The notes beneath the pieces are model-generated. The model saw only the letters and a program-made list of their open reading frames with translations. It searched no databases and was not told where the DNA came from. A program made the translations under genes and the position numbers. 64,000 bases of DNA from contig CBDCJV010000002.1 in the NCBI GenBank assembly GCA_965217895.1, forward strand, positions 2,048,001 to 2,112,000. The letters are read 5' to 3'. Below, piece after piece: positions 7,642 through 33,190 of this stretch. The stretch's first letter is position 1; each line of letters begins with the position of its first letter. The DNA comes from Waterburya sp. GTDB taxonomy: Bacteria; Cyanobacteriota; Cyanobacteriia; Cyanobacteriales; Xenococcaceae.

Positions 7642-7727
7642 TGTAAAATCATAATTCGGTTGAACAATTTTAATTTACATAAAGCTATTAAAATCGTTAG
7701 CTTAATAATAATTTGAGCGAACAATTT
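7642..7727 (+). repeat. Tn7 left end with two putative TnsB-binding sites
   Basis: TAATTCGGTTGAACAATT (7652-7669) and TAATTTGAGCGAACAATT (7709-7726); consensus TAATTYG-N5-ACAATT shared with the right end. Confidence 0.8.
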
Positions 7728-8110
7728 ACTTTTTAAGAATTAAACCATGTTAATTGTGACCTCAAAGCTGTAATAACACGAGGGGACAATTTTTATGACG
7801 CTTGCTACGAAAGACTTTTGCATATCAAGTGCGGATGATTCGTTTTTTGCTTCAGTATACTATTTTCAAAAAAAGTATGGCGATTGCCTGTTTTTCGTTT
7901 CACCAAAACTGTGCAAGACCCTAATTAATTCATCACCATACCAGCTATATTTTTGGGGACTCCATTCTTCTTCAAGTCGTTTGGACAAGCTGCTTGAGAA
8001 GCAGCGTCCCCCGACTTCTATCTCTGCGTTGAAATCTGGTTTGAAATTAATCTAAGTAGACAAAAGAGCGTGTTGATCTGCTCGGTTTTTGTCCTGTACT
8101 TAGAACTAAT

Positions 8111-8131
8111 TCAACTTTTTGCCACACTGCC
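8111..8131 (-). repeat. Possible solo IS6-family terminal inverted repeat
   Basis: Minus strand GGCAGTGTGGCAAAAAGTTGA resembles IS6-type ends (GGCWCTGTTGCAAA); no transposase seen. Confidence 0.3.
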
Positions 8132-8175
8132 GTACTCATCGTTATGGTAGATTTACTTAAAAAATAAATATAAAA

Positions 8176-11100
8176 ATGCCTAATATAAATCGTCAATCTA
8201 AAACTAAAGCCACTCTTTCAGCGATCGCGGTTGTGGGGATGAGTTGTCAATATCCAGGGGCCAAAGACATTAGGCAACTTTGGTCGAATATCTTGGCAAA
8301 ACGACAGCAATTTCGACAAATTCCCGATGTACGCCTACCAATAGCTGAATATTACGATCGCGATCGCTCTGTCCCCGATAAGACTTATGGCGATCGCGCT
8401 GCGGTAATTGATGGTTTTGAGTTTGATTGGATTGGGCGACGCATTCCTCAGCAAACAGTACAGACTACAGATATCGTACATTGGCTGGCGTTGGAAACTG
8501 CCAATGAAGCTTTAAAAGATGCAGGCTTTAATCGCCAAAATGTGAATACAGCCAAAACGGGGGTAATTTTAGGCAACACCTTAACTGGAGAGCAAACTCG
8601 TGCCAGTACCTTACGTTTGCGCTGGCCTTACGTCAGACGAGCTTTAATCGCATCTGCCCAAGCTAGAAAAATGAGCGATCGAGTAATTGAAGCTTTGGTT
8701 GAAACAATGGAGCAGTTTTATAAATCTGTTTTTGCTCCCGTCAACGAAGATTCTTTGGCAGGAGGACTTTCTAACACTATTGCTGGTAGGATTTGCAACT
8801 TTTTCAATTTTGATGGTGGAGGATACACGGTTGATGGGGCTTGTGCTTCTTCCTTAATTGCTACAGCTACAGCTTGCAGCAAATTAGTTAGTGGCGATCT
8901 AGATTTGGCTTTGGCGGGAGGAGTAGACGTTAGTTTAGATACCTTTGAGCTAATTGGTTTTGCTAAAACTGGAGCTTTGACTGCGGGCGATATGGCAGTT
9001 TACGATCGCCGTGCTAGTGGTTTTATTCCAGGAGAAGGCTGTGGTTTTGTCGTTCTCAAACGATTAGCAGACGCAAGAGCAGCAGGAGATTATGTTTATG
9101 GCGTAATTCGAGGCTGGGGCATTTCTTCTGACGGTAAAGGCGGAATCACTGCACCTTCTGGGATAGGACAAAGCAAAGCTATACTCAGAGCCTATGAAAA
9201 AGCAGGTTATCATCCATCAGAATTAGATTTCATTGAAGGACATGGTACGGGAACTCCTGTAGGCGATCGCGTAGAATTAGAAGGGATTGCTTTAGCCATT
9301 TCTCAAGGAGAAGCCCAGATTAAACTCCGCTCGGTAGGCATTACTTCATTCAAATCTTTAGTCGGACATACCAAAGCAGCAGCAGGGGTTGGTGGTTTGA
9401 TTAAAGCTGTTATGGCAGTCAACCAGAGAATAATTCCTCCTACTGCTGGCTGTGCTGAAGCAAATCCTTTATTTGCCACTACTGCCCAATCTATTTATCC
9501 TGTTTTAACGGGAAAAGTTTGTCAGCCAAATACGACTCTTCGGGCTGGAGTTTCGGCAATGGGTTTTGGGGGAATTAATTCTCACCTTACTTTAGAGTCG
9601 GGCGATCATGCAGCCGAGCATTTGAAAACCGATTTGTTTCCTAAAGCTTTGCTAGTTTCGGCTCAAGACAGCGAAGTATTTATTTTAAGTGCCATTTCTG
9701 TTGAGAAATTATTAGAGCGCATTGAAAGACTAATCGATCTGGCAAGGGGAATTAGTCTGGCAGAGATGGTAGATTTAGCTGCCCTGCTAACAAGGCAAAT
9801 AGATTCCCAGCAACAGGTAAGAGCAGCAATAATTGTGACGACACCCAAGCAGTTAGCTGAAATTCTCCAGAAAATCAAACAGATTTTAGCAGATTCGCCA
9901 CCAGCGAAAGGAGAACTGACAACATCTCCCACTCAAGATTTTTGGCTGGCAAATACAGTTAACCATTCTAAAGTAGCCTTTATCTTTCCAGGACAAGGTT
10001 CGCAAAGATTGAACATGGCGAGTACTTTAGTGGAGCGTTATGACTGGGCGCAGCAGTTAGTTAGACAAGCAGACAAATGGTTAGAGGAAGTTAGTTGTCA
10101 GCCAGTTAGCCCTTTAATCTATTGTTGTTTAGAACAAGCAGCAGACGAAAGCGAAATAACTAATTGGTTTAGGGATCTATCTCGTGCTGAAATTGCTTCT
10201 CCTGCTATTTGCTTGGTTTCTTTATTGTGGCTGCGCTATCTCCAAGAACTAGGAATTGAACCCGTGGCAGTCGGTGGACATAGCTTAGGCGAATTGACGG
10301 CTTTTTATCAAATAGGAGCTTTTGACGCTAAGACTTTAATTCAGTTTGCAGCAATTAGAGGTCGAGCTTTAGCCAATTCTGGCAAAGAAACAGGAGCTAT
10401 GGCTAGTCTGGGTTGCGATCGCGCCTTTGCTGACCAAATCATTCAACAGGCATCGGGCTATGTGGTTATTGCTAATTTAAATAGTCCCAGCCAAACGGTT
10501 GTTTCAGGGGAATCTGAGAGTATTGACTCAGTTGTAAAAATAGCGGTTGCTCGAGGAATTCAAGTTAAAAAATTGCCTGTAGCTAATGCTTTTCATTCTG
10601 AGATAGTCAGAGAAGCAGCTAAATATATTACAAATAATGCTGCAGTTCCCGCCAAGCTAGTAGACACTGCGACTCCTTTATTTTCCAGTATCGATGGCAA
10701 ACAAATTCAACCAGAAGTTAAATTAAGCCACCATTTTGGCAAACAGATAGTTTCTGCGGTAGATTTTGTAGCTTTAACAACAAATATTTACCAGCATTGC
10801 GATTTAATACTAGAGGTTGGTTCTGGTCGAGTTTTAGCTAACCTAATTAATACAACTATCAACTCTAAACAGCCCGTTGGCTTTTGTACTGAAGGCAAAC
10901 CGACAACAAGTAAAAATCTTAACTGCTTTTTAGGCAGATTATTCGTTGCCAATCAAGAAATAAACTGGCAAGCACTATATAAAAATCGTTTAGTACATTC
11001 TTTTATTCCACCGTCGGAAAAATTATTTATTGATAATCCTTGCGAACGTCCTTTTAAAGTACCTGAAACTTATTTATCTCAATTAACACCAATTTTGACT

Positions 11101-14100
11101 GAGAATCAACCACCAAACAGTTTAAATAAACTAGAAAGCCTAGATAAAATTATGGCTGCTAATCAACACGACTTTAAAGAAATATTATCTCAGTATTTTA
11201 GCGATCGCAGTTCCTTTTTAGCTGAAATAATTAAAGCAGATCTGGCAACTCTACCAAAGCAATTATTAAATTTAGAAAGCAGAAGCGATCGGGATTTAGT
11301 ACCTATGCTATCTCGGTATTTCCAGATCAGAGGCTCGTTTCTAGGGCAAATCATTAATTCAGACCTAAAATCTTTAAACTATCTCGATGGGTTAAAAACG
11401 CGATCGCCCTACCAAGAATTAGAGTTGAGCAATGCTATAAAATCAAATCTCAATTATCTCAATGGCAATAGTAATAATCATCAACAAGCCGAGCAAAATT
11501 ATGTTAACAAAGCTGTTTCATTGAAGCCAGAAGTAAAGCATCAAGCCGAAGCAGCTAATAATTTGCGATCGCATATCGAACAATTTTTATTAAACTCAGT
11601 TGTCGAGAAAACAGGTTATCCCCTAGAAAGTATCGACCTAAGTTTAAAATTATTAGATGACTTAAATTTAGACTCGATTAAAGCAGGAGAACTAATTGCT
11701 ATAACTGCTAAGAAGTTTGGTGTAGCTGGGCAATTACAGCCCTCTAGTTTGGCTAACGGTACTCTCAAGCAGATAGCAGAAGAAATTGTCTTATCAATTT
11801 CTGGAGATTCAAAAGTAGTCAATGACAATCCTAAAGCTGAAGGCGCGGTACTAGCCAACAAAAATCAGAAAATCGTTCCAAATATTGTAGTTAGATCGTC
11901 AACTTCTACCTGGGTGCGTAATTTTGCGATCGCCTATGTCGAGCAAAAAATACCTCAACGGGATAAAGATTGGTTACAAGCCAAAGTTTTAGTTGTTACT
12001 GACAAGACTCATTTAATTGCTGATGTGGTAGCCGAACAGCTTGGTAATTTAGGTGCGCGAGTTGATCGCATTACTTATCAAGAAATAGATGATAATCTGA
12101 CTGTAACTGCTAACTATTCTGATTATTTTGCGTTGCTACCCCAGACGAGTAGCTCTTTACCATTAAAGACAATGGTAGAAAGGCTTAAAAGCATTGTTAC
12201 GGCTAGTAAAAACAGTCTTACTCCCAATATTGCTTATATTCAGTTTGGCGGTGGTTATTTCGGCGAGCGACCCCGCGCGCGGTCAACGCGCAAGGGAACC
12301 CGCGAGCTTGGACAGGGAAAACAAGCAATATCTCCAGAAGTATGTTGCGCTGCTGCTTTTGCTCGAAGCTGGCATTTAGAGCGTTCGGATTTGCGAGTGC
12401 GAGTTATCGATCTGGCTACAGAAATTGAACCCAATGATGCTGCTCAATTAGCGATCGCCGAACTAGCAGGAAATGAAGCGATTGTTACTGTAGGCTATGA
12501 TGCAAATAAGAGACGTTTAGTTCCCAGACCCCTATTACAGCAACCAGTTCACTACCAAAAGCGCGATCGCTCATGGTCGGAACAAGATGTGATTTTAGTT
12601 ACGGGAGGCGCGAAAGGAATCACCGCCGAGTGTGCTTTAGCTTTAGCGCAGTCAATTGATGTAAGAATGGCAATAGTGGGACGTTCTAACCAATCAAAGG
12701 TAGCTCAAACCTTAGAACGATTTCCTAAGCAAGATCGAATCCGCTACTATACCTGCGATATTACCGATGCTGATGCAGTCAAACGATTAATTACTACGAT
12801 TACTGCCGACTTAGGTACAGTTACTGGCGTAATTCATGGTGCGGGAGTCAATCAGCCTCAAAGAGTTGAAGAAGTCAGTGTTGAAGCTGCGGTTGAAGAA
12901 GTGTCGCCCAAGCTACTAGGAGCATATAACCTCTTGCAATCCTTGGCAGCAACTCCACCAAAGTTATTTATGGCGTTTAGCTCGATCATCGGCGTAACGG
13001 GAATGCCTGGTAATGCTTGGTATGGATTTTCTAACGAATCTCTAGCCATCTTACTGCGCCAGTTTAACCGCCATCACCCAGAAACTCAAACTCTTTCTTT
13101 GGCTTACAGCGTTTGGGGTGAGGTAGGCATGGGAGCGCGTTTGGGTAGTCTCAAAAATCTAGAGCGCATGGGCATTGATGCTATTCCTACCCAAGAAGGA
13201 GTAAATCGCTTTGTTCAGCTTTTTCATTACGATCCAGGAGTACAGCAGATAATTATTGCTGCACGTTTGGGTGGTTTGGATACCTGGCTACCAGATTTTT
13301 CTCCACCAACCAAATTACGTTTTATCGAGTCAGTTTTGCACCTCGAACCCGAAGTAGAATTGACCGCTCGCACTCATCTTAGTTTAGAACGGGATTTATA
13401 CTTACAAGACCATCTCTGGCGCGGGTCTTATCTCTTTCCCACCGTATTCGGTTTAGAAGCAATGGCTCAAGCAACTGCCTACGTTCTGGGGGAAGAAAAA
13501 CCTGCGATCGCAGCAATTGAAGATATTTCTTTGAAACAGCCAATTGTCGTCGATCCAGATCGGGGAGTGGCTATAGAAATTTATGCTGAGGTGTTAGAAG
13601 TCGATCTTCAGGGAGAACGACGAGTCAAAGTCGCAATTCGCAGCGAACAGAGTAACTTTACTAGCGATTGCTTTACCGCCACATTAGTTATTAAAGAGGC
13701 AAAAGCACCAGTAAAACTAGATTTGAAACTAGATCGAGCCTTAGAATTAAATCCCCAAACCGATCTTTATGGCGACTTACTCTTTCAGGGTTCGCGTTTT
13801 CAAAGAATGGGTAAAATTTTTACTCTGACTTCTACAAATTGTGTTTTCCAGGCTGAAATGCGATCGCCAGACGAACTAATAGCAGATAGCTTTACTACTT
13901 ATGAAGATAGCTATCTAATTTTGGGCGATCCTTACTTGAGAGATGTATTACTCCAGTCAGTCCAGCTTACTATTCCCCGCGATATTTCCTTGCCCGTTAA
14001 GATCGGTAAGATTGAACTGTTTAATAATTCTTCAAGTCGCAATAATTCTAACAAAATCGTAACGGCTCATTTGCAACCGCGGTCAGGAAATGAATATTTA

Positions 14101-15951
14101 AGTGAAGTTTTGCTTACCGACGACTCAGGCCTTGTTTTAGAAAAATTGACTAGCTATCGTCTGCGGATTCTCGAAGAACATCCTGATAACCCAACTGCGG
14201 TCGAATTGGCTTTTCCTGAAACTCGCGATCGCCAGCTACTCGATCGGGCTTTAAAATCTGTTACAGATAAGTTCGATCTAAATTTACCTGCTATAGCTCT
14301 GGGAGTTACGCCCAATATACACAAAGTCAGCAAAGAACAACGCCGTCAAATAGAAAAACCGATTGTAGCTGATGCTCTAAATACTAAACTAGGTTTATCC
14401 TCCACAGCAGAAATTGAATTTGAGATTGAGTCTTTAGCTTCTGGGAAACCACAGCTGAAGGGGGCGGAAACCGCAGGATTAGAACTGTCTCTATCTCACT
14501 GCGATCGCTATTGTTTGGCTGTAATAGATAAAACGCCACAAGGATGCGACATTGAGCCAATTACTCTTCGTTTGACAGAAGATTGGCAAGCCCTTTTAGG
14601 AAACTCCCAAAGCGAGATTATTGCAGAATTAATTCAACAAGGAGACAGCCTAGACATGGCTGGTACTAGAATTTGGTCGGCAGGTGAAGCAATTAATAAA
14701 GCCTTCAACGACACTGATGCCCAATTTTCAATTAGCAATCGCGATGGCGATGCGGTGTTGTTAAAGTGTTTGACTCCTACAGGCAAATACTATGTCGTTA
14801 CATTTCCTATTAAATTAACTCGTCCTCTAGAAAGAATCATTGCGATCGCCGTTTCCTTACCTGGAACTGATTCAATCCCTGTAGTTTCTGCCCTCTCAAC
14901 TGATATTGCCGAAAATCGCAGCCATCGCTCCCGTTATACCAGAGACAATCCCCAAGGACAATTAGTTTACGAACAGCGTTTTCAAGCCAGCTTTAAAGAT
15001 AGTGGCAGTATTAGTCGTCACGTCTATTTCTCCCAGTATTTTCGCTGGATTGGTAAAATTCGCGAAATACCGATGGAAAGCATTGCCAACCAAATTTTAA
15101 GAGACTTCTTAACTGGAGAATGGGGCATGGTAACTAATACCGTTAGTCTGCGGGTATTGGGTGAAGCCACTGCTTATGATGTGATTCAAGCCCGCGCTTG
15201 GGTAGGTAATATTGTTGATTCTTCTTTTACTACTTATATTGAATTTTGCCAAGTGCTGCCTGACGAATCTTTAAGCAGACTGGCGATCGCTGAAGTTAAA
15301 GCTACCTGGGTACGTCTAGTTAGCTATGGTGTTCCTTCTCCTATGACTTTTCCAGACTATCTACAAGAATACCTCGACCGATTCGCGACCAAAAAACCAG
15401 CCACTCTCGATCTTAAACAACCCGATTCTTTACCCCTGCCACCATTACCTGCTAGTCTGAAGGAAATAAACTTAGGTCATTTACTACAACAGGCTTCTTC
15501 TCAGGAGCGTTATGGACAGCTAATCTACTCCGAAGTTTTTCAGACAACTCTAGAAGAATCAAATTTAGTCGGTAATGTTTATTACGGCAACTACTTTATC
15601 TGGCAAGGTCGGATTCTCGATCTGTTTCTCTACTCAATCGCTCCTGAATATTTACGGGTTTCAAACCCTCGCGGGGAAATGATTTGTCTGTACAGTCGTA
15701 TGGACTATCTAAAAGAAGCAATGCCTTTTGACAAAATTCGCGTCGATCTTTATGTCAGCTCGGTTTTTGAATCTGGAGCAAAATTTAACTTTGAATTCTT
15801 TCGAGAACAACCAGACGGAAAAAGAGAAAAACTTCACATTGGTCAGCAAGAGGTGGCATGGGTAAAACGGCTAGAAAATGGTACTCCTGTATCTACATCG
15901 TTGCCTCCGATATTGAGACAAAAGCTTTTAAAATCATTTAGCAAAAACTAA
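8176..15951 (+). CDS. pksE: Enediyne-type iterative type I PKS (KS-AT-ACP-KR-DH-PPTase) with two fused C-terminal hot-dog thioesterase domains
   Basis: KS GGGYTVDGACASSL, EGHGTGT, GHTKAAAG; AT FPGQGSQ, GHSLG, NAFHS; ACP DDLNLDSI; KR VTGGAKGIT; DH DHLWRGSYLFP; PPTase SHC..GCDIE..RIWSAGEA; TE HVYFSQYFRWIGKIRE and EESNLVGNVYYGNYFIWQGR. Confidence 0.9.
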   Translation: MPNINRQSKTKATLSAIAVVGMSCQYPGAKDIRQLWSNILAKRQQFRQIPDVRLPIAEYYDRDRSVPDKTYGDRAAVIDGFEFDWIGRRIPQQTVQTTDIVHWLALETANEALKDAGFNRQNVNTAKTGVILGNTLTGEQTRASTLRLRWPYVRRALIASAQARKMSDRVIEALVETMEQFYKSVFAPVNEDSLAGGLSNTIAGRICNFFNFDGGGYTVDGACASSLIATATACSKLVSGDLDLALAGGVDVSLDTFELIGFAKTGALTAGDMAVYDRRASGFIPGEGCGFVVLKRLADARAAGDYVYGVIRGWGISSDGKGGITAPSGIGQSKAILRAYEKAGYHPSELDFIEGHGTGTPVGDRVELEGIALAISQGEAQIKLRSVGITSFKSLVGHTKAAAGVGGLIKAVMAVNQRIIPPTAGCAEANPLFATTAQSIYPVLTGKVCQPNTTLRAGVSAMGFGGINSHLTLESGDHAAEHLKTDLFPKALLVSAQDSEVFILSAISVEKLLERIERLIDLARGISLAEMVDLAALLTRQIDSQQQVRAAIIVTTPKQLAEILQKIKQILADSPPAKGELTTSPTQDFWLANTVNHSKVAFIFPGQGSQRLNMASTLVERYDWAQQLVRQADKWLEEVSCQPVSPLIYCCLEQAADESEITNWFRDLSRAEIASPAICLVSLLWLRYLQELGIEPVAVGGHSLGELTAFYQIGAFDAKTLIQFAAIRGRALANSGKETGAMASLGCDRAFADQIIQQASGYVVIANLNSPSQTVVSGESESIDSVVKIAVARGIQVKKLPVANAFHSEIVREAAKYITNNAAVPAKLVDTATPLFSSIDGKQIQPEVKLSHHFGKQIVSAVDFVALTTNIYQHCDLILEVGSGRVLANLINTTINSKQPVGFCTEGKPTTSKNLNCFLGRLFVANQEINWQALYKNRLVHSFIPPSEKLFIDNPCERPFKVPETYLSQLTPILTENQPPNSLNKLESLDKIMAANQHDFKEILSQYFSDRSSFLAEIIKADLATLPKQLLNLESRSDRDLVPMLSRYFQIRGSFLGQIINSDLKSLNYLDGLKTRSPYQELELSNAIKSNLNYLNGNSNNHQQAEQNYVNKAVSLKPEVKHQAEAANNLRSHIEQFLLNSVVEKTGYPLESIDLSLKLLDDLNLDSIKAGELIAITAKKFGVAGQLQPSSLANGTLKQIAEEIVLSISGDSKVVNDNPKAEGAVLANKNQKIVPNIVVRSSTSTWVRNFAIAYVEQKIPQRDKDWLQAKVLVVTDKTHLIADVVAEQLGNLGARVDRITYQEIDDNLTVTANYSDYFALLPQTSSSLPLKTMVERLKSIVTASKNSLTPNIAYIQFGGGYFGERPRARSTRKGTRELGQGKQAISPEVCCAAAFARSWHLERSDLRVRVIDLATEIEPNDAAQLAIAELAGNEAIVTVGYDANKRRLVPRPLLQQPVHYQKRDRSWSEQDVILVTGGAKGITAECALALAQSIDVRMAIVGRSNQSKVAQTLERFPKQDRIRYYTCDITDADAVKRLITTITADLGTVTGVIHGAGVNQPQRVEEVSVEAAVEEVSPKLLGAYNLLQSLAATPPKLFMAFSSIIGVTGMPGNAWYGFSNESLAILLRQFNRHHPETQTLSLAYSVWGEVGMGARLGSLKNLERMGIDAIPTQEGVNRFVQLFHYDPGVQQIIIAARLGGLDTWLPDFSPPTKLRFIESVLHLEPEVELTARTHLSLERDLYLQDHLWRGSYLFPTVFGLEAMAQATAYVLGEEKPAIAAIEDISLKQPIVVDPDRGVAIEIYAEVLEVDLQGERRVKVAIRSEQSNFTSDCFTATLVIKEAKAPVKLDLKLDRALELNPQTDLYGDLLFQGSRFQRMGKIFTLTSTNCVFQAEMRSPDELIADSFTTYEDSYLILGDPYLRDVLLQSVQLTIPRDISLPVKIGKIELFNNSSSRNNSNKIVTAHLQPRSGNEYLSEVLLTDDSGLVLEKLTSYRLRILEEHPDNPTAVELAFPETRDRQLLDRALKSVTDKFDLNLPAIALGVTPNIHKVSKEQRRQIEKPIVADALNTKLGLSSTAEIEFEIESLASGKPQLKGAETAGLELSLSHCDRYCLAVIDKTPQGCDIEPITLRLTEDWQALLGNSQSEIIAELIQQGDSLDMAGTRIWSAGEAINKAFNDTDAQFSISNRDGDAVLLKCLTPTGKYYVVTFPIKLTRPLERIIAIAVSLPGTDSIPVVSALSTDIAENRSHRSRYTRDNPQGQLVYEQRFQASFKDSGSISRHVYFSQYFRWIGKIREIPMESIANQILRDFLTGEWGMVTNTVSLRVLGEATAYDVIQARAWVGNIVDSSFTTYIEFCQVLPDESLSRLAIAEVKATWVRLVSYGVPSPMTFPDYLQEYLDRFATKKPATLDLKQPDSLPLPPLPASLKEINLGHLLQQASSQERYGQLIYSEVFQTTLEESNLVGNVYYGNYFIWQGRILDLFLYSIAPEYLRVSNPRGEMICLYSRMDYLKEAMPFDKIRVDLYVSSVFESGAKFNFEFFREQPDGKREKLHIGQQEVAWVKRLENGTPVSTSLPPILRQKLLKSFSKN

Positions 15952-16011
15952 TTATGGATCTAGGTCTGTAAAATTAGCTGTAGTTTGAAACAATTTTGAG
16001 GAGCAATTGAT

Positions 16012-16989
16012 ATGGACAATATGGAATTTATTATTAATGCAGTCAGTGGTACTGATGCCAATGACTTTCTCTTGGGCAGTCCTAACAATGATGCGATCGA
16101 GGGAAACGGTGGTAATGATTTGCTACTTGCTAATCTTGGAGATGACGCTTTAGTAGGTGGCAACGGTAACGATGCCATGTTTGGTGGTCCTGGGGTTGAT
16201 GTTTTAGATGGAGGCCCTGACGAGGATACGATCTTTGGTCAAGACGGTCTTGACGCGCTCAACGGTGGTGATGGCAACGATGCCATATTTGGTGGTGCAG
16301 ACCAAGATGCGCTCAACGGTGGCAATGGCGACGACGCTTTGTTTGGTGAGGGCGGTCTTAACTCGATTGACGGTGGTGATGGTCGCGATGCCCTATTTGG
16401 TGGTGAAGATAACGATATTTTAAATGGCGGTGCTGGGGATGATGGTTTATTAGGTAACGGCGGTAATGATGTCTTATTTGGCGAACTGGGCAACGATGTG
16501 ATGTCTGGCGGTGACGGCGACGATCGCATGAATGGCGATAAAAACAACGATGCTATGTTTGGTGGCAACGGTGACGATATCTTAATTGGTGGCGATGATA
16601 ACGACGTGCTTTCTGGAGATGACGGTAGCGATCTTTTAATTGGTGGCGCGGGAATAGACCAAATTACAGGCGGTGCTGGTGCCGATTTCTTTGGTTTGAC
16701 TACCGAAACAGGAGCCAACATTATTACCGATTTTGTAGTTGAAGATGATACTCTCTTTGTCTCCGCTGCGGATTTTGGTGGAGGCTTAACCCCAGGTGCG
16801 CTGATTCAACCAGAGAGTTTTGTCCTGGGAACGTCAGCTACTACGGAGAGCGATCGCTTTATTTACAATGATGCGGACGGTTCTCTATTCTTTGATGTAG
16901 ATGGAGTTGGCGCAAGCGAACAGATTCAAATAGCAAGCTTATCAACAGGACTTGAATTGACTAATAACGATATTTTCGTTTTTGCTTAA
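16012..16989 (+). CDS. RTX (hemolysin-type Ca-binding repeat) protein
   Basis: Many GGxGxDxL nonapeptides; C-terminal DRFIYN..GSLFFDVDG..DIFVFA typical of type I secreted proteins. Confidence 0.9.
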   Translation: MDNMEFIINAVSGTDANDFLLGSPNNDAIEGNGGNDLLLANLGDDALVGGNGNDAMFGGPGVDVLDGGPDEDTIFGQDGLDALNGGDGNDAIFGGADQDALNGGNGDDALFGEGGLNSIDGGDGRDALFGGEDNDILNGGAGDDGLLGNGGNDVLFGELGNDVMSGGDGDDRMNGDKNNDAMFGGNGDDILIGGDDNDVLSGDDGSDLLIGGAGIDQITGGAGADFFGLTTETGANIITDFVVEDDTLFVSAADFGGGLTPGALIQPESFVLGTSATTESDRFIYNDADGSLFFDVDGVGASEQIQIASLSTGLELTNNDIFVFA

Positions 16990-17039
16990 TTCATATAAAC
17001 CGCACCTCTATATTACCGAGAATAGAAAAGGAGACAATA

Positions 17040-17417
17040 ATGAAAATTCTCAGCCCTAAAATTCATGGATATCTAGACTATTTAGTAGTTGTCTGGTTTT
17101 TAGCTGCACCGACGTTATTCGGCTTGACTGACGTTGCTGCTAATATTTCTTATGCTCTGGCGATTATTCATCTAGGGTTAACTGTTTTGACGGCTTTTCC
17201 CTTGGGTGTAATTAAAGTAATTCCCTTGCAGTTTCACGGCGCGATCGAATTTATTGTCTCTTTTGCTTTGATTGCTTTGCCCTGGGTACTAGGATTTGCT
17301 TCAGTGGCATCGGCGCGTAATTTTTATATCGCTTCAGGAATTGCCATCTTTATAGTTTGGCTGATTACTCGCTATCAAAGTGCAGGAGTTAAAACAAAAA
17401 CAATCAATCAACCATAA
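17040..17417 (+). CDS. Small 4-TM membrane protein (SPW-repeat-like)
   Basis: HGYLDY..AAPTLFG, HGAIEF..LPWVLGF; four hydrophobic helices. Confidence 0.7.
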   Translation: MKILSPKIHGYLDYLVVVWFLAAPTLFGLTDVAANISYALAIIHLGLTVLTAFPLGVIKVIPLQFHGAIEFIVSFALIALPWVLGFASVASARNFYIASGIAIFIVWLITRYQSAGVKTKTINQP

Positions 17418-17542
17418 AGATTATCTAGTTAAGAAGTTAAGCAATCGCATTTAATTCTCGAATAGAAATACCGATCTATCATTAGAACACAGTTAAATAC
17501 TCACAATAATAATCTTTCGTCTTTAATCGATCAAAATAAATA

Positions 17543-19300: not shown

Positions 19301-19338
19301 TAAATAGCTTTCCTGAAGGATACCGCCTTCTTATATTC

Positions 19339-19366: not shown

Positions 19367-19393
19367 CTTTCTACTTTTTTAATAAAACCAACT

Positions 19394-22253: not shown

Positions 22254-22326
22254 GATAAAAGCTCGAAAAAATATTTAAATTAATAGAAAAGAGTAGACAC
22301 AATTTAGTCAACCCAAAATACTATTT

Positions 22327-24339: not shown

Positions 24340-24351
24340 GGGATTAAATTA

Positions 24352-25524
24352 ATGTTCGATCGCTTGTTTACTGCTTGGCTACAGCTAAAATATCAAAAAA
24401 TTCGGTTTTTAATTGCACTTTCGGGGGTAATTTTTGCCGTTGTCATTGTTTTTATGCAATTGGGTATTCGCGATGCCTTATTTAACAGTGCGGTTCGTTT
24501 TCACCAAGGTTTACAAGGAGACTGCTTTATTATTAGTCCTCGCTCGACATCTTTAATCGCCATGGAAAGTTTTTCTCAACGCCGTTTGGTGCAAGCCTTA
24601 GCTTTTGAAGAAGTAGAATTTGTTAATCCGATTTATCTTGATTTTGTCCAGTGGAAAAATCCCGAATCTAGAAAATACTGGCGTAATATTTTTGTAATAG
24701 GTTTCGATCTTCGACACCAAACTTTCGACTTACCTGGAGTTAAAGCAAGTCTCAATCAACTTCAACTTCCAGATACTATTTTATTTGATCGCACTTCGAG
24801 AACTGAATTTGGACCAGTAGCCGAACAATTTGAGGAAAAAGGTTCGGTGATTACCGAACTGGGAAGTAATAGCGGTTCTAATTGTCGAGTTAAAGTAGTA
24901 GGATTATTTGAGTTAGGAACTTCTTTTGGTTCTGATGGCAACATTATTACCAGCGACGTTAACTTTTTGCGGATCTCAAATACTCGTCAAAAAGGCTTTA
25001 TTGATGTTGGTTTAATTAAATTAAAATCGGCTGTCAATCCAGAACTTTTTAAAACTAAGCTGCAAAAATATTTAGCCCAAGATGTCAGAATTTTTACCAA
25101 ACAGGGATTTATTAACTTTGAAAAAAGCTATTGGCAAAGCAGCACTGCCATTGGCTTTATTTTTAATTTGGGTGTCGCTTTGGGCCTAATCGTCGGCATT
25201 GTCGTGGTTTATCAAATACTTTATACCAACATTTCCGACCACTTGCAGGAATACGCCACTTTAAAAGCGATCGGTTACAGTCGAAGATATATGTTAAATA
25301 TAGTTTTTCAACAAGCTTTAATTATCGGAATTTTGGGTTATATTCCAGGATTATTAATTACTATTATTCAATATGAGTTTACCAAACAGGCAACTTTGCT
25401 ACCAATTGAGATGACTTGGCAAAGAGCGGCGTATGTCTTGGTAGCAACCATAATTATGTGTTCGATCTCTGGGGTTTCGGCGATGAATAAGCTGAAGTCT
25501 GCCAACCCTGCCGATATCTTTTAA
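24352..25524 (+). CDS. devC: DevC-family ABC exporter permease
   Basis: AWLQL..FAVVIVFMQLG, YQILYTNISDHLQEYATLKAIGY, C-terminal ANPADIF. Confidence 0.9.
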   Translation: MFDRLFTAWLQLKYQKIRFLIALSGVIFAVVIVFMQLGIRDALFNSAVRFHQGLQGDCFIISPRSTSLIAMESFSQRRLVQALAFEEVEFVNPIYLDFVQWKNPESRKYWRNIFVIGFDLRHQTFDLPGVKASLNQLQLPDTILFDRTSRTEFGPVAEQFEEKGSVITELGSNSGSNCRVKVVGLFELGTSFGSDGNIITSDVNFLRISNTRQKGFIDVGLIKLKSAVNPELFKTKLQKYLAQDVRIFTKQGFINFEKSYWQSSTAIGFIFNLGVALGLIVGIVVVYQILYTNISDHLQEYATLKAIGYSRRYMLNIVFQQALIIGILGYIPGLLITIIQYEFTKQATLLPIEMTWQRAAYVLVATIIMCSISGVSAMNKLKSANPADIF

Positions 25525-25535
25525 TCTTTTTAGCG

Positions 25536-26219
25536 ATGAACCCAATTGTGATCCGCAATTTAAATCATTATTTTGGCGAACAAGCTTTAGTCAAACAAAC
25601 CTTATTTGACATCAATATAGAAATCAAAGCGGGTGAGATTATAATCCTAACTGGTCCTTCAGGATCTGGTAAAACTACCTTGCTAACTTTAATCGGTGGA
25701 CTGCGATCGGTTCAATCTGGCAGCTTGCTAACTTTAAATCGAGAATTATGCGGGGCAAGTGAAGCCGACTTAGTCCAACTCAGACGCAAAATTGGCTATA
25801 TCTTTCAGGCACACAATTTATTACCCTTTATGACCGCACAACAAAACGTGCAGATGTCTTTAGAACTAGATAATAATTTAAGTAGTCGTCAAGCTGCTGT
25901 AAAAGCCATGGAAATGCTGGCAGCAGTAGGCTTAGAAGCAAGAGCTAAATACTATCCCCAAAAACTTTCAGGGGGACAAAAACAACGGGTGGCGATCGCC
26001 AGAGCTTTAGCCAGCAATCCTGAGTTAGTTTTAGCCGATGAACCAACTGCTGCTTTAGATAGTAAAACAGGTCGAGAAGTTGTCAATATAATGCGTCGCT
26101 TGGTCAAAGAAAAAAACTCGACGATCCTTTTAGTAACTCATGACAATCGTATTTTAGACACAGCCGATCAAGTTATCCATCTAGAGGATGGTCGCTCGAT
26201 CGGGATAAGTGGTAACTAA
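25536..26219 (+). CDS. devA: DevA-family ABC exporter ATPase
   Basis: GPSGSGKT, LSGGQKQR, LADEPTAALD, VTHD. Confidence 0.9.
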   Translation: MNPIVIRNLNHYFGEQALVKQTLFDINIEIKAGEIIILTGPSGSGKTTLLTLIGGLRSVQSGSLLTLNRELCGASEADLVQLRRKIGYIFQAHNLLPFMTAQQNVQMSLELDNNLSSRQAAVKAMEMLAAVGLEARAKYYPQKLSGGQKQRVAIARALASNPELVLADEPTAALDSKTGREVVNIMRRLVKEKNSTILLVTHDNRILDTADQVIHLEDGRSIGISGN

Positions 26220-26325
26220 CCTATCCTACTAATATAATAGTAGTGGGGGTTTGAGTAGCAACTGATACTGAGCCACGAACTTAACATTTAGACGAAAGGC
26301 GATCGCCAGCAAAAATAGCCAAAGT

Positions 26326-26866
26326 TAATCAGGAGCTAACTTAGCAAAAGAAGATACGCGAGTTTTTGCAAAAGGGATACCCTCAAACCACGCAAACAGA
26401 CGAACCGCATTCATCGCAGCCACTGTAAGTATGTATTGTAAATGAACTTTATCCAATTGATTCGACATTATGTTGTTGCTTACTCTTAACTAATAAAGTG
26501 CCATCTACATAACCCGCATCAATCAAATGCTCAGATGGTAATAATTCTTTGTCAGCTAAAGATTGATGAATTGATTCAGTTTGGTCTACATCACTTAAGT
26601 GGGCTTGTATTGTTTGAACATTGGTAATTAAATGAACTTGCCTTTTCTCACAAGTTTCAGTTAGATGTACCTTTCAAGGCTAAACTGCCAGGACGCAGGA
26701 CTGGCTGACCTTCAGATGAATAAAGTTCGGCAAAATCTTCATCATCGTAAAATGTTCCCAATTTATCTCTCAGGCTTATATAAAGATTCCCTTTGGGAAA
26801 AGCTTGGTGGGCTATTTCTTTAGTGAGAGATGGGATGGGTTTGATTGATTTACGATGTAGAACCAT
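26326..26866 (-). pseudogene. IS1182-family transposase remnant (three joined pieces)
   Basis: N-terminal AFPKGNLYISLRDKLG; middle LITNVQT..LLPSEHLIDAGY; C-terminal KVHLQYILTVAAMNAVRLFAW..TRVSSFAKLA (manual translation). Confidence 0.75.
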
Positions 26867-26983
26867 AATTAATGACTCTCCCAGAACTTTTTTAATTACC
26901 TATAAGCTCAATTTAGGTCATTTTGTGAAACTAAATTATTAAAGATTGCGACCGCTTTTCGTCTAAATGTTAAGTTCGTCAGC

Positions 26984-27782
26984 CTGTGGGGGCGACACAA
27001 GAGGGATAAAAGCAAGCCAGGAGTGAGATTGAGAAAAGTAGTCTCCCAAAAGATGAGAGACTATTATCAATAATCTTTTTTGTTGAAAACGGAATGATTC
27101 TGTCTTGGTCAGCGTTCCCTTGCGTCTTACGCCGACGCGGGGTCTGACCGCAACTACCCGAATTATATAGCAAACATCTCAAAAAACAATTTAGTTGTTC
27201 TCAGTATCTAATCTTCGTAATCCTAATCAACTTACTTCAAGATTTACACACAGTCCGATTAGAAGAATTAGCCCGTCGTTTTCCTATATCCATTCAATTA
27301 AGAAGCAGAGTCAAGAAAATACAACGATTTTTATCTCTTCCTCTATTTAATATTCAAAATCTTTGGTTTCCCATTTTAGAAACTTGGCTAAAAACAGAGT
27401 GGCAAGGCAAGCAAACAATTTATTTAGCCATTGATCGTAGTCAGTGGAGAACTATAAATTTACTGATGGTTAGTATGATTTATAATAATCGAGCGATTCC
27501 AGTATATTTTTTTCTCTTACCTAAGAAGGGAAATAGTAACTTAGCACAGCAAAAACAAGTTTTAGAACCAACACTAAAACTGTTACAAGACTATCAAATT
27601 GTTGTGCTAGGAGATCGAGAATTTTGCGGAGTAGAGTTAGCTCGATGGCTTTCAGATTTTTCCAAGATGTCGTTCAAGAATTGATCCGTTTTTCAACTGC
27701 CAAACACGATTATTATCGAAAAGGTATGAGGGCTAAAGCCTTGATTCAGCAAGCTTTCTGATTCGTTCTGTTGCCCCTACAG
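26984..27782 (+). mobile_element. Internally deleted IS4-family element with both inverted repeats
   Basis: IRL CTGTGGGGGCGACAC; IRR on minus strand CTGTAGGGGCAACAG; transposase pieces LPELYSKHLK..YLAIDRSQW..VLGDREFCG and C-terminal YYRKGMRAKALIQQAF*. Confidence 0.75.
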
Positions 27783-28455
27783 GGCTAATTTATCAACCTT
27801 TTCTTCGAGTTTAAGATTAGAACTATTGACTATGGTTTTTACTTTTTTACGAAATTTCAAGAAATTCTCCTTAGATGGAGTGCTTCTGAATTTGCCGTTG
27901 CTTTGAACCTTGAAGTTCCAGCCTAAAAAGTCAAATCCATCTGTCGAGGCTGTTAGCTTTGTTTTCTTCTCGCTTATTTCCATTCCTCTTTCGGCTAAAA
28001 ATTCTTTTACTTTGTTTAATAACTCTTTAGCATTGTCTTTGGATTTTAAGAAGAAAATCATATCATCTGCATATCTAACGCATATTGATTGCATTTTTCT
28101 TTTGGCTTTGATTTCGCCTATTCTTTCAATACCGTTTAATGCTATGTTGACAAGTAATGGGCTAACCACCCCGCCTTGAGGAGTTCCTTGTTCTGGAAAT
28201 TGAACGTTTGTCCCCGCTTTAAGACATCTGAAAATGCCTAGACTTAAGTTTCGGGGGCAGAGAAGTTCGTCCATTATGGCTTTGTGGCTAATCCTATCGA
28301 AGCATTTGCTGATATCAAGTTCTAGGACTCTTTTATCCATTCCTTTTACTCGGCTGTTTAGATTTTGAAAGATTATCTTTTGGGCATCGTGACACCATCT
28401 AGCTGGTCTGAATCCGTAGCTTTGGGCATGAAATGTAGCTTCATGTGCTGGTTCT
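27783..28455 (-). pseudogene. Group II intron reverse transcriptase fragment
   Basis: SYGFRP, LDISKCFDRI, GTPQGGVVSPLL, RYADD, FDFLGW; cut on both sides by IS remnants. Confidence 0.88.
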
Positions 28456-28645
28456 AGAGTTGGCGCGAACAAAACCAATAAACTGAGTCTCCCCTGGAAA
28501 TGGTAGATAATCCATCATTAGAGCCAGATAGAGCCAGAGTCATAATTTCGCTGTCACTCATTTCTGGCTTTACCCCAGGACATTTACGCTCGCTTGATTT
28601 CTCTAGCTGATACCAATCGTCTACAAGAACGAAAACTATCACTCT
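28456..28645 (-). pseudogene. IS982-family transposase 5' fragment, frameshifted
   Basis: FVLVDDWYQ..PGVKPEMSDSEIMTLAL, then MDYLPFPGETQFIGFVRAN in another frame. Confidence 0.7.
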
Positions 28646-28699
28646 TTTGGCTTTCAAAGTCTATGCTATTCATGAGGAAAGATATTTAGATGGGCAGCT

Positions 28700-29069: not shown

Positions 29070-29936
29070 CTACCACCTAAATCTAGCTACACAATCTAGA
29101 AAATAGGCTTCGTTTGTACCTACTCTTACTACTGGAACTCCAATAATGTTATCCATTTTTACCAAAAAGTTAAGTAAGTCATCTTTGCTTCTTCTAGCAT
29201 TAACCAAGTTTTGCATCTCATCAATAACTAACATCCCTAAGTGATGAGTATGAGCTAGTTGAGCTACCTGAGCCAACATATAATCTTCAGAGTTACGAGT
29301 TGAGCCAAATTTTTTAAAATAATTCGTGCCAAGCAAGAGATCGATTTCCTTGAAAATATCGATACATAATCCTTTTAGCGAACCAACGTGAGGACAATCT
29401 ACTTTAATCCATACAAGCTGATAAACGTTATATTCTGAATGGGCAATAACTTGAGGGTATAGATTGAGAATATTCTTTAAATTAGTGGATTTACCCATTC
29501 CTGAAGGACCGATTAGCGTAAAACCAGAAGCAGAGGTTGGTACATTGACATAATCTTCAATAGTTTTACCATTTCCTGTTTTGATGGCTTCATAGATTTG
29601 ATTGGCACGGCGAGCGTATTCTGGCTCGATAGGATTGCGAGCTAAGTAGCCTTGCATCAATAGAACGCTAACAATTCTTTGTAGTTCAAAAGTTTGATTC
29701 AAAGGAAAAAAATATCTTGATAATCTTTCAACGCAATGAAACCTAAATTGCGAGTCGAAAAATCTTTCCTCTTCCGCAAAATTAGGCATTCGAGTGACGC
29801 GATCGACAAATTCTTCATTAGAAAAAATTGCTGGTAATGCCCTAATCATGAGATTAGCATTGTACTCAGCAAGTTTTTGGTCGTTATAATCAGCAATTGC
29901 TGCTATTGTACCGTTTGAAATTTGTATTTGAGCCAT
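29070..29936 (-). pseudogene. tnsC: TnsC AAA+ ATPase, C-terminally truncated
   Basis: Walker A GPSGMGKS, Walker B LVIDEMQNL; sequence turns unrelated after VRVGTNEA; only 288 aa. Confidence 0.85.
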
Positions 29937-30092
29937 TTTAAATTATTATTTTTCTCTGTTTTTTTGCTCTCTGCGTTTTCTCGCGATCAGATTTAAATTT
30001 TTGCGTTTTACCGACTTGGAACTCGAATTTTCAGAATTTTCAGAAGATTGATGAGTAATCTTATGCTTTGATAGCCTGTTTTTTTCTAAATC

Positions 30093-32225
30093 TTAAGAAC
30101 GTTTATCTGCTTTTATCTTGACAGTGGCTTGCGACTCTTCTTGGCGGTCGCTTAATTCAAAACCTTCTTGTTCGCGTCGTTTTTCTTTTTCAAAGGCGCG
30201 ATTATCACGAATTCCTTTAACTCGTTCGTTTTTACTTAAGGTTTTATCTTTAACTACATCAGTTAAAGTTGTGGCTTGCTTCACTACCGATTCAATTTCA
30301 GACATCAAATTTATTTCCTGTTGAATTTGCTTACCCTGATATTTCTGATGTTGATAATTTTCATAAGCAAATAAATATTCTATGTCATCAAAAGGCTTTC
30401 CCTTATATTTATTATCAGGATCGATAATGAAACATTTTTCGTACTCTCTACCATTAGGCGAACGAAGATAAATAAAGTCTGGCTTTCTTGGATCGTATGA
30501 AATGTTTAATGATTTCTCATCTTTAGTTAGCAGTTTATTTCTAGCTCTTTCAAACCACTGCTCTTTGATAGCTTTGTCACATATATAGTAAAGATCTTTT
30601 TTAAACTTAATTCCCTTTGCAGTAATAGTTGCTTTTTCCGCAGGCATTAAATTCAGTTTGACAATATCCTCACTAAAAGTTTTGAGTTTTCCAGAACGAT
30701 TGCTAATTCCCCATTTCCAAAGTTCTCGAGGAATTGGTTCGATATCGTCCGTTATCATCATTTCTTCTCGATCATAGTTTTCTAAGAAATGATGATTATT
30801 GTGATGTCTAATTAAGTGAATAATGATTTCGGTAAATTGATTTGTGTCAAGTTTGGCATCCAAGCGATAGTCTTTTCCGCCTCTTTGTGTAAAGTTAATA
30901 TCTACATAACCTGGTAAAAATGGCTTGACTCGATCGTGAATAATACGAAAGTGTCTTTCCACTAAACCTTTCCAATCGGCTCGATAGGGAGCAGCATTTT
31001 CAATGCGAATTCCCAGATTGCTGATTAAAGTTTCGACTTTTTTACCTGCTAGTTCGCCACGATCGCCCAGAATAGCATCTGGTATATGATGTGCCAACCA
31101 TTCTTCTTCCTCAATCTCTATTCCATATTCAGCACAATATTCAACCTTATTTCTAGCAGCATTGACCAAAGCCATCATCATTCCGACCCACGAAGGTCCT
31201 TCCAAGCCAACATACACGCCAGTTATCATGCGACTAAAAACATCTATAACCACGTACACTACTGGTCTGCCACTAATCCAATTGCGATTGTAAGGTGAAA
31301 CTAAATAAACATCAGCAACAGTGGCATCGATTTGATAGCGAGAACCAGGACCAATTGATTCTTGTTTAGAGTTTCCTAAAATAGCTCGATGTTTGAGTGC
31401 AAAAGTTCTACTTGCTTTTCTAGAAGAAATAGTTTTTTTAATATCATTTTGTTCCTTATTATACCAATATCTAAATTGATTTAATGTTGGTCTTTTTTCG
31501 GGAGGAATCAGAATTGTTTTTTTAACACCGCGATTGTCAAATGTAATTTCTTCTGTATAGTATTCCTTGAGCATTAGCTTATATGCTGTAGTTAAAGAAT
31601 TTTTTTTGCGATTATTATAAAATTTGGTTATTGCTGTTCGGAAAGTTCTTCTATCTTCTTCTGTAATATTTATACCTTTACCTATTTCTGGAACAATACC
31701 GTACTTTCTAGGTCTACCTCTCTTTACACTATTCGATTTTCGCGTTGTACCTTTTCCCGCAGAATTAACATGATCTGGGATTAAGGCATTTTTGATCTTT
31801 CCTCGCTGCCAATATCTTCTTAGGTAACCGTATACTGTTTTTTCTACTACTTTTCCTTTAGTTTTTCCTTGATTATATTTTTCTACAACTTCTTTTACTA
31901 AAGAGCCTCGTAAATGTCTATAGTATATATCTGGTTCTTGAGTTACTAGTGATGAAATGATATTCCAGGCTTTATTTCTAATATCTATTTCTCTCTCTAA
32001 TAAATTTTCATCTTGAATTATCCTTGCCCAAGGATCGTTAGAATATTTTGAAGCTATTTCATTTAAGATCGCCTCTTCAATTTCAGCAATTGATTTTGGA
32101 TAGGGAAACCCTTTGTTAGCTTCAATCTCAAAAAGAAAAGCAATTGAATAGTCATCATCAATCCACACAACTCGTTCTATCGAGCCATCATTCCATTTAA
32201 TTAAATCGTTAACATATAAATTCAT
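30093..32225 (-). CDS. tnsB: TnsB DDE transposase (probable premature stop 48 codons early)
   Basis: GPGSRYQIDATVAD, VIDVFSRMITG, LGDRGE, KGLVERHF; the frame stays open past the stop to 29946. Confidence 0.92.
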   Translation of the reverse strand: MNLYVNDLIKWNDGSIERVVWIDDDYSIAFLFEIEANKGFPYPKSIAEIEEAILNEIASKYSNDPWARIIQDENLLEREIDIRNKAWNIISSLVTQEPDIYYRHLRGSLVKEVVEKYNQGKTKGKVVEKTVYGYLRRYWQRGKIKNALIPDHVNSAGKGTTRKSNSVKRGRPRKYGIVPEIGKGINITEEDRRTFRTAITKFYNNRKKNSLTTAYKLMLKEYYTEEITFDNRGVKKTILIPPEKRPTLNQFRYWYNKEQNDIKKTISSRKASRTFALKHRAILGNSKQESIGPGSRYQIDATVADVYLVSPYNRNWISGRPVVYVVIDVFSRMITGVYVGLEGPSWVGMMMALVNAARNKVEYCAEYGIEIEEEEWLAHHIPDAILGDRGELAGKKVETLISNLGIRIENAAPYRADWKGLVERHFRIIHDRVKPFLPGYVDINFTQRGGKDYRLDAKLDTNQFTEIIIHLIRHHNNHHFLENYDREEMMITDDIEPIPRELWKWGISNRSGKLKTFSEDIVKLNLMPAEKATITAKGIKFKKDLYYICDKAIKEQWFERARNKLLTKDEKSLNISYDPRKPDFIYLRSPNGREYEKCFIIDPDNKYKGKPFDDIEYLFAYENYQHQKYQGKQIQQEINLMSEIESVVKQATTLTDVVKDKTLSKNERVKGIRDNRAFEKEKRREQEGFELSDRQEESQATVKIKADKRS

Positions 32226-32254
32226 AGCTATCTTAGATTTAATTCAAATTAATA

Positions 32255-33055
32255 TCAAATAACTTGTTTGATAATATTTGTATATGAGTTGTTAAAGACT
32301 TTTGCTTCTTCCATTTCAATTACAATTTCTTTTCTGGCAATTAAATGTTTAAATAATGACAAACAAGTATCAGCCTCAAGATCCATATCTCGATCTAATT
32401 TTGATGTAATTGTACTAATTCTTGATTTTTTGCTATTTAATATATCTTTCAAAATATTGTTAATGTAATAGCGATTTTCGCTATTTTTTTCAACTGGTAG
32501 TTCCCAATGATAATTTGGATGAACCCACTTGACGTTATCAGCCAAAATTTTAGATATTTCTTGTTCTGTTACTAATGCCCAATCAACATTTTGTCTTTCC
32601 CAATACAGTTTTTCTATTGTCCTCTTCTTTTCCAATTCTTTAGTCATTTTTATTGTGCGGGAAATTTTAACTAATTTACCACCCTGCTTGATTATCAACA
32701 TAAAATCAGTGGTTAGTACATAGGGAACATCTGTGTTTTTATCTTTGGGATATTCAATTCCTATCTCATCAGCAATACAAAATGCCAGATCCAAATCGAT
32801 CAATGGATATTGTTCTTGTATATCTTGAACTGCATCACTCCATTCAAGTAAATAAAAAAACCTTAATTCCCAATCAGACATAAAATGATGTACGCGATCG
32901 CTTCTCCATCCAGGCGTTCTTGAAACTCTGCCTTGTGAGGGGAAATCTTGAATGGTTATCCAGGGTTTATAATTTTTTCCACTACCTTTTCCTCTTCCCT
33001 CTTTTACAAATCGCTCGAATTTCGTTTTTGTCCAATCCTGCTTGCGTCTACCCAT
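32255..33055 (-). CDS. tnsA: TnsA endonuclease subunit
   Basis: EGRGKG..YKPWI..DFPSQGR, HHFMSDWE, DIQEQYPL, LTTDFM, RTIK. Confidence 0.92.
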   Translation of the reverse strand: MGRRKQDWTKTKFERFVKEGRGKGSGKNYKPWITIQDFPSQGRVSRTPGWRSDRVHHFMSDWELRFFYLLEWSDAVQDIQEQYPLIDLDLAFCIADEIGIEYPKDKNTDVPYVLTTDFMLIIKQGGKLVKISRTIKMTKELEKKRTIEKLYWERQNVDWALVTEQEISKILADNVKWVHPNYHWELPVEKNSENRYYINNILKDILNSKKSRISTITSKLDRDMDLEADTCLSLFKHLIARKEIVIEMEEAKVFNNSYTNIIKQVI

Positions 33056-33115
33056 AAAAACAAAGCATAAAAAACAGTACAGTCTTATTAGTTAAGATTG
33101 TACTATTTTATGACA

Positions 33116-33164
33116 TAATTGTCGCGTCGAATTATAAATTGTTTAACCGAATTACCATTGTACA
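33116..33164 (-). repeat. Tn7 right end with two adjacent putative TnsB-binding sites
   Basis: Minus strand TGTACAATGG-TAATTCGGTTAAACAATT-TA-TAATTCGACGCGACAATT. Confidence 0.8.
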
Positions 33165-33190
33165 CAAAAAACGATAAAAAAGCAAATTCG

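Follow-up and report, generated by a model that had tools for sequence, protein, structure and literature searches.

How did a whole polyketide gene cluster come to lie inside a transposon beside glmS? The question is raised by a stretch of 64,000 nucleotides of the Waterburya sp. genome (GenBank assembly GCA_965217895.1, contig CBDCJV010000002.1, positions 2,048,001 to 2,112,000; hereafter the window), in which a Tn7-family insertion of 25.5 kb (7642-33164) at glmS encloses nine biosynthetic and export genes. The locus is a fossil Tn7, of a lineage related to CRISPR-associated transposons (CASTs), around an intact orphan polyketide cluster of known type. The genome itself is nearly complete (5.29 Mb). 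The ends and the attachment site are as follows:

7636..7641, no strand: target-site duplication, left copy (compared with 33165-33170, 5 bp plus one extra T in a T run, or 6 bp)
7642..7818, plus strand: left end, terminal TGT and three spaced putative TnsB-type sites (7652, 7709 and a degenerate one at 7774)
33056..33164, minus strand: right end, terminal TGT, two close putative TnsB-type sites (33154, 33134) and degenerate further sites
33165..33170, no strand: target-site duplication, right copy, pair of 7636..7641
33191..35098, minus strand: glmS, attachment-site gene (TIGR01135 above cut-off)

A preliminary description of this DNA had proposed matching termini at 7642 and 33164, four TAATTYG-N5-ACAATT repeats, tnsABC at the glmS-proximal end, an insertion 26 bp past the glmS stop and an operon (8176..26219) between the two ends, and all of these were borne out. 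The terminal 29-mers at 7642 and 33164 are inverted copies (25/29 identical) and are the only matches genome-wide at six or fewer mismatches. The repeat motif, far from being common, occurs five times in the genome, with four copies in the element ends (7652, 7709, 33154 and 33134). The TGT...ACA termini with their arrays of putative TnsB sites are typical of Tn7-like elements, as is the glmS-proximal position of the right end, 26 nt from the stop codon. Pfam, NCBIfam and PDB matches confirmed tnsA, tnsB, tnsC and glmS. The left junction is not an assembly artefact, as a single contig of run X1 (which may be the source sample) covers 6983-8088 with zero differences. A right end 2 bp further out (33166) may also be read and gives a perfect 5-bp duplication, but it breaks the alignment of the two ends and was set aside.

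Directly outside the left end lie a right end and a tnsA stub belonging to a Tn7 family different from that of the element:

7436..7567, minus strand: tnsA stub of an older Tn7, outside the element (44 codons; 68% amino acid identity to the TnsA of the window; 76-86% nucleotide identity to the glmS-adjacent tnsA starts of relatives)
7568..7637, minus strand: shortened right end of the older Tn7 family (repeat type ATAAAGTTGGTAAC; aligns with glmS ends in L037, L045, L048 and L049)

Ends of this older type are present at glmS in many relatives, and of 20 glmS loci scanned with a regular expression, 10 had an end at 23-25 nt from the stop codon on its downstream side. When the element and one copy of the duplication are removed in silico, the older end comes to lie 24 nt past the glmS stop. 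The same position is given for AvCAST insertion in the available part of PMC13251919. The restored 24-nt spacer indicates that the newer element inserted 2 bp within the older right end and displaced the older remnant by 25.5 kb. The DNA from 7642 to 33164 is a single Tn7-family insertion at glmS, made into a site already occupied, and confidence is high that one such insertion encloses the cluster. Beyond the stub, a cut gene fragment (7303-7432, plus strand), which we take to be SWIM-domain-like, is fused to the old tnsA stub. It marks a rearrangement breakpoint, since a contig of run X3 runs past 7432 into other sequence; one low-depth X2 contig links 7432 to 26326 via unknown letters and allows no reading, both sides being repeated or mobile sequence.

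The cargo (8176-26219, about 18 kb) consists of nine co-oriented intact genes:

8176..15951, plus strand: PksE-like iterative type I polyketide synthase (PKS), 2591 aa, KS-AT-ACP-KR-DH-PPTase-like with two fused hotdog thioesterase domains (Pfam)
16012..16989, plus strand: RTX-repeat calcium-binding protein, 325 aa (PF00353 only; no toxin domain found in it, toxin models scoring far below cut-off)
17040..17417, plus strand: SPW-repeat membrane protein (PF03779)
17543..19300, plus strand: FAD-dependent halogenase-like enzyme 1 (closest solved relative PltA, E 7e-17; GxGxxG and WxWxIP)
19394..21190, plus strand: FAD-dependent halogenase-like enzyme 2 (67% identical to enzyme 1; same motifs)
21237..22253, plus strand: alpha/beta hydrolase (PF00561)
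22327..24339, plus strand: response-regulator receiver fused to a DevB membrane-fusion protein (PF00072, TIGR02971)
24352..25524, plus strand: DevC ABC permease (TIGR01185 above cut-off)
25536..26219, plus strand: DevA ABC ATPase (TIGR02982 above cut-off)

All nine genes are under purifying selection (dN/dS 0.06-0.36 against three relatives, simple counting method). The cluster is not distinguishable as an island by GC content, and a promoter scan gave counts at chance level. In the PKS, the KS, AT, ACP and KR motifs are intact and the domain order is that of PksE in enediyne cassettes, with a PPTase match below the Pfam cut-off. Its C-terminus matches PDB chains named ACP-polyene thioesterase, CalE7 and DynE7 (E 4e-15 to 4i4j and 2.5e-14 to CalE7), as for a fused E10-type hotdog thioesterase, and the second hotdog domain matches only enediyne-type thioesterases in the PDB. 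The CalE7 arginine, presumably catalytic, is present in the first domain and replaced by leucine in the second, which suggests that the two may form one composite active site; both thioesterase motifs were found in at least 9 of 120 homologues (a floor, as the regular expression was strict). The two predicted halogenases carry PltA-type motifs, with family scores below the NCBIfam cut-offs, and enzyme 1 has a PKK stretch that aligns with PltA and whose lysine we assume to be catalytic. The receiver-DevB protein of the window stands apart (76-77% identity, where three relatives share 93-95% with one another); the fusion is also found in G013, and most of the distant loci match the DevB part only.

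Between the cluster and the right end lie the transposition genes and a zone of debris:

26275..26979, minus strand: insertion-sequence (IS) remnant, internally deleted (32-bp inverted repeats 26275-26306 and 26948-26979, 94%; no Pfam or PHROG match), which we take to be IS1182-like, although it has no library match
27087..27684, plus strand: second IS fragment (a 50-65 bp piece is multi-copy in the genome; phrog_15546 match), presumably IS4-like
27686..28660, minus strand: remains of a group II intron, its reverse transcriptase truncated (RVT_1 and TIGR04416 both score below cut-off; the genome has three further copies at 69% identity)
29070..29936, minus strand: tnsC, truncated (homology stops at 29103, codon 278 of about 561; 78% identical to the TnsC of G017 over 1-278 only)
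29946..32225, minus strand: tnsB, premature stop after codon 710 (a coding tail continues in frame and matches the C-termini of 757-764 aa homologues)
32255..33055, minus strand: tnsA, 5-aa in-frame deletion (the stretch is present in the G017 copy)

A tnsA-tnsB-tnsC core thus stands beside the right end, as in Tn7-like elements, though all three genes are damaged. The best matches among solved structures are to prototype Tn7 (TnsB, E 3e-114; TnsC, E 3e-50), and the DDE motifs of TnsB are present. The C-terminal region of TnsB is reported to engage TnsC (PMC13251919, as far as available). For a TnsD/TniQ target selector, neither PF15978 nor the TnsD and TniQ proteins of sister elements gave a match to the element in this genome; one weak TniQ belongs to a separate element at C2:4.50 Mb, where a tnsB-tnsC-tniQ-like operon with an integrase nearby (L129, G000:C2:4504800-4509600) is unrelated to that of the window. 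Judged by its sequence, the element is dead and immobile as it stands, because tnsA carries a deletion, tnsB a premature stop, tnsC is truncated, and TniQ, Cas and TnsD have been lost. The CAST of G245 has a group II intron reverse transcriptase fragment, 65% identical to window 27777-28460, in a similar position, between cas5 and tnsD.

From which lineage does the element come? Its TnsB falls into a clade with the CAST-bearing elements of G365 and G331 (quick tree, 21 rows, SH-aLRT 100), its TnsC is 76% identical to that of G331, and its TnsABC are those of the I-B1 lineage. Of six more complete relatives examined at glmS, five have TniQ together with Cas6/8/7/5 (TnsD also being seen in the examined stretch of three of them); in the sixth there are two TnsD-like genes, and Cas gave no match. 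Given this TnsB clade and the five CASTs among six sisters, the element most likely descends from a cyanobacterial type I-B1 CAST lineage, although as it stands it is not itself a type I-B1 CAST.

A search for the same ends recovered them in 5 of 401 genomes of the order (including this one) and in 13 metagenome stretches, two of which (L080, L081) align with the left end. The three-site left end of this family is found, besides those two stretches, in G342, G021 and G007; the G342 copy bounds a different cargo, at a distance of 18 kb from glmS. The G342 locus (L094-L095, G342:C6:27006-45200) is a type III CRISPR-Cas system (Cas10, Csm4, RAMPs and two Cas6, one of them fused to a sigma-70 region 4 domain), located between a left end of the window family and a right end of the other family at glmS. 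Other loci record similar overlays. In L081 (1412-1765), a left end of the window family abuts a 3' tnsD fragment, as if inserted in the tnsD of another element; in L092 (6326-6576) and L093 (1974-2842), two Tn7 families have their left ends stacked with the same orientation, at distances of 250 and 870 bp; and at the glmS locus of G019 (L038) a duplicated glmS 3' end is followed by broken cas6 and cas8, the remains of another CAST.

The cluster was found in 19 of the 401 genomes, in a patchy pattern discordant with taxonomy in the tree. Halogenase matches were obtained in 5 of 38 other genomes of the genus, while G023, the nearest relative sampled, gave none. The closest named copy of the cluster (95% halogenase identity) is from Waterburya sp. 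Three relatives (G017, G019 and G020) hold the cluster at 87-92% nucleotide identity, with homology stopping within about 30 bp of the first and last genes. Their copies lie elsewhere than at glmS (about 165 kb from it in G020 and 2.9 Mb in G019), so that no relative was seen with the cluster at this site and Tn7 ends lacking. The G019 cluster site is a breakpoint without counterpart in G000, G020 and G023. The psbA-side block is 0.8-3.8 Mb from glmS in G019, G020 and G023, and there is no psbA-glmS interval to align. In trees (from which L001, L002, L004 and L014 were excluded as duplicates, and for which the G082 PKS lacked the KR-DH stretch within the region used), the four PKS copies make up a single close-knit clade with a long stem, and those of the other two congeners fall outside it; the DevC tree (quick mode only) differs from the KR-DH tree in grouping G042 with the window clade. 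No tns or glmS match was seen in longer stretches around the cluster in G013, G017, G019, G020, G042, G077, G107, G332 and a Gloeothece plasmid, the plasmid itself carrying a copy. None of 15 tested loci with the same ends held a cluster gene. This TnsB occurs in 34 of the 401 genomes and together with the cluster in five, the two being adjacent only in the genome of the window. The cluster is old in the species group and moves without Tn7.

Did Tn7 bring the cluster to glmS? Of the preliminary claim that the operon was mobilised as Tn7 cargo, the enclosure by a Tn7 element at glmS stands, while the mobilisation is not shown: the element is immobile, no second copy of cluster plus Tn7 was found, and three relatives have the cluster without Tn7. 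In the preferred scheme, the element would have entered glmS by TnsD-guided transposition, having taken up the cluster from the gene pool of the same species group, probably by IS-driven recombination, and would have carried it in its last jump; the 3' part of tnsC, the Cas module and tnsD would then have been lost to later deletions, by which the cluster became fixed at this site. We give even odds to carriage by transposition in that last jump. It is supported by the unique matched ends, by the duplication that restores the 24-nt spacer, by the grouping of TnsB with CAST elements and by the low dN/dS of the cargo, as well as by the different 18-kb cargo bounded by the same left-end family at glmS in G342, the lack of a match in G023 and the patchy distribution. 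The cluster occupies the usual cargo position and begins 534 bp in from the left terminus; no IS gene was recognised at its 5' junction, and no scar or remnant of it was found elsewhere in the genome. In G020, 18 bp of the same end remain as a stub at the glmS site, 25 nt beyond the gene. Several points weigh against this account of a CAST-derived element with transposed cargo. The duplication lies in a T run and is one base off the 5-bp model, though its position fits. No CAST gene or repeat survives here (no match genome-wide to the TniQ or Cas proteins of G331, and no repeat core in the window), so that the CAST ancestry rests on the relatives. The 2.9 kb from tnsC to the cluster is IS and group II intron debris, which points to rearrangement once the element had inserted. 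No Tn7 ends or genes lie near the cluster in G017, G019 and G020, where it occupies three other loci and is adjoined by IS fragments, and its divergence from these three at fourfold sites (0.24, 0.22 and 0.19) resembles the core medians (0.19, 0.22 and 0.19; 53-62 sampled core orthologues), which argues for long residence in the species group. In the four other genomes with both, the cluster and TnsB are on different contigs. A search of genomes for the same ends, or for pksE beside tnsABC, had been suggested with the preliminary description; in the 401 genomes it found ends and no second case of cluster with Tn7, and no tns gene or glmS was seen at any of 35 halogenase loci within a reach of 10 kb from the halogenase, barely past the cluster. 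Nor did the literature searched yield a paper naming the product of the cluster.

Alternatively, Tn7 may have inserted first with other cargo, and the host's own cluster may later have moved into the decaying resident element by IS-mediated or homologous recombination, possibly in the same event that deleted the 3' part of tnsC through to tnsD, so that Tn7 never transposed the cluster. We regard such capture in place as a serious possibility, somewhat short of even, and the data do not separate it from carriage in the last jump. The core-like divergence, the debris at the tnsC junction and the relocation of the cluster without Tn7 in relatives (the G019 breakpoint and the IS fragments in G017, G019 and G020) all favour it, as do per-gene distances that form a mosaic and suggest exchange among lineages. 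In runs X1 and X2 (which may be the source sample), of some 305 contigs about 125 are no more than 90-99% alike, and much of the cluster is covered at about double the depth of the left junction, from which it follows that co-occurring relatives carry the cluster too. Against capture in place stand the lack of an IS gene or a duplicated IS pair on the 5' side of the cluster, the lack of a scar or remnant elsewhere in the genome and the missing match in G023. It is improbable that the two ends stem from different insertions of the same end family and were brought around the cluster by deletions in a stacked array: decayed elements are stacked at the glmS sites of this family, G007 and G021 have orphan left ends of the same type outside other elements, and the duplication is of low complexity, but the flanks of both ends rejoin exactly into the older right end with the usual spacer. 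A bolder version of carriage, in which a type I-B1 CAST delivered the whole 18-kb cluster to the ancestor of the species group at glmS, the present genome keeping the fossil, the G020 stub being a remnant and the sisters having later moved the cluster out via insertion sequences, is unlikely. If true, complete polyketide pathways of cyanobacteria would have natural carriers in CAST-lineage elements, and useful cargo would become fixed when the transposase is lost.

What does the cluster make? The preliminary description had called it a complete enediyne-type cluster, which does not hold, because E3, E4 and E5 were not found in the genome. We take E5 to be DUF1702, E4 to be UnbV/ASPIC and E3 to be an RnfD-like gene, as fits the G082 locus. 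DUF1702 and UnbV/ASPIC gave no match in this genome, with the same searches positive in 8/301 and 3/5 control genomes respectively, and neither did the E3-, E4- and E5-like proteins of G082 by tblastn. Enediyne cassettes are defined as E10/E/E5/E4/E3 (PMC4480864, PMC9682884), and a PKS with thioesterase alone is described to yield a heptaene (PMC4480864, in the portions of both texts available). A true enediyne product is therefore highly improbable, in spite of the PksE-like domain order, the E10-type thioesterase and a KS-AT region 40% identical to PksE in the full cassette of G082. The PKS would instead self-prime and iteratively build a polyene chain from malonyl-CoA, which the two flavin enzymes would halogenate, likely while carrier-bound, before release by the fused thioesterase or the hydrolase and export by DevBCA. 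The product is probably a halogenated polyketide, and would be a polyene-derived lipid rather than an enediyne. Some versions of the cluster add a carotenoid-oxygenase-family gene, which fits a polyene intermediate. An apparent full cyanobacterial enediyne cassette (DUF1702, UnbV/ASPIC, RnfD-like gene and PksE) lies beside devBC in G082 (L107, G082:C1:43000-57000), and a locus of G368 (L108, G368:C1:1300000-1312000) combines a PKS, two halogenases, an aldehyde dehydrogenase, a carotenoid oxygenase and two DUF1702 genes, possibly an intermediate between the cluster type of the window and enediyne cassettes.

The locus bears on how large biosynthetic clusters come to be spread so patchily in cyanobacteria, as a whole PKS cluster resolved to the base in a CAST-related element. 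The order of events can be read from it: an older Tn7, a newer Tn7 with different ends, decay of the transposase and retention of the cargo. It also presents a compact, nine-gene version of a widespread orphan cluster, suited to heterologous expression. The weight of the case is limited, because it is one genome with a dead element, carriage of the cluster by transposition stands at about even odds, and the cluster type, like biosynthetic cargo in Tn7, has been published before. No report of the cluster within Tn7 was found in the literature searched, which did not extend to supplements that could list such cargo (Table S1 of PMC9881144 and the element tables of the Benler preprint).

Compared with prototype Tn7 (tnsABCDE, attTn7), the element shares close right-end and spaced left-end sites and differs in being immobile, in its imperfect duplication and in that TnsD was not found (TnsE was not searched for). 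With the type I-B1 CAST of Anabaena variabilis (AvCAST) and the glmS-targeting cyanobacterial Tn7-like elements, as far as they are described in the available parts of PMC9881144 and PMC13251919, it has in common a separate TnsA and TnsB, a Tn7-type TnsC, insertion about 24-26 bp past glmS and a right end with tnsA on the glmS side. Unlike AvCAST-type elements, it is without TniQ, Cas genes, array and TnsD, its tns genes are damaged, and it has its own end-repeat sequence and a large biosynthetic cargo. The enediyne cassettes, as given in the accessible text of PMC4480864 and PMC9682884, share the PKS architecture and the hotdog thioesterase family with the cluster, whereas in the window the thioesterase is fused and doubled and E3, E4 and E5 were not found. 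An "enediyne KS clade" has been noted in cyanobacteria (PMC4247773), a Microcystis bloom cluster has been annotated as enediyne (bioRxiv 2022.10.12.511943), and a PksE-like PKS with three halogenases was described in Microcystis aeruginosa PCC 7806 in 2008 (PMC2442094), each source being available in part. By that description, the PCC 7806 cluster resembles that of the window in its iterative PksE-like PKS followed by halogenases, and it is set apart by the single unsplit PKS, two halogenases, receiver-DevB fusion and Tn7 location of the latter; Microcystis loci have the same gene order, with hydrolase and DevBCA. A link of secondary-metabolite genes with Tn7 or its site has precedents, again from partly available sources: Tn7 cargo includes nonribosomal peptide synthetase (NRPS) and siderophore genes, complete pathways being rare (bioRxiv 2021.08.23.457393), a bicyclomycin cluster sits at attTn7 in Pseudomonas aeruginosa (PMC5930311), and the Pbo NRPS/PKS island borders a Tn7-like element (PMC8473136). 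The present locus differs from these in that a whole 18-kb cluster is framed by two resolved ends and a resolved duplication, in an element of a cyanobacterial CAST-related lineage.

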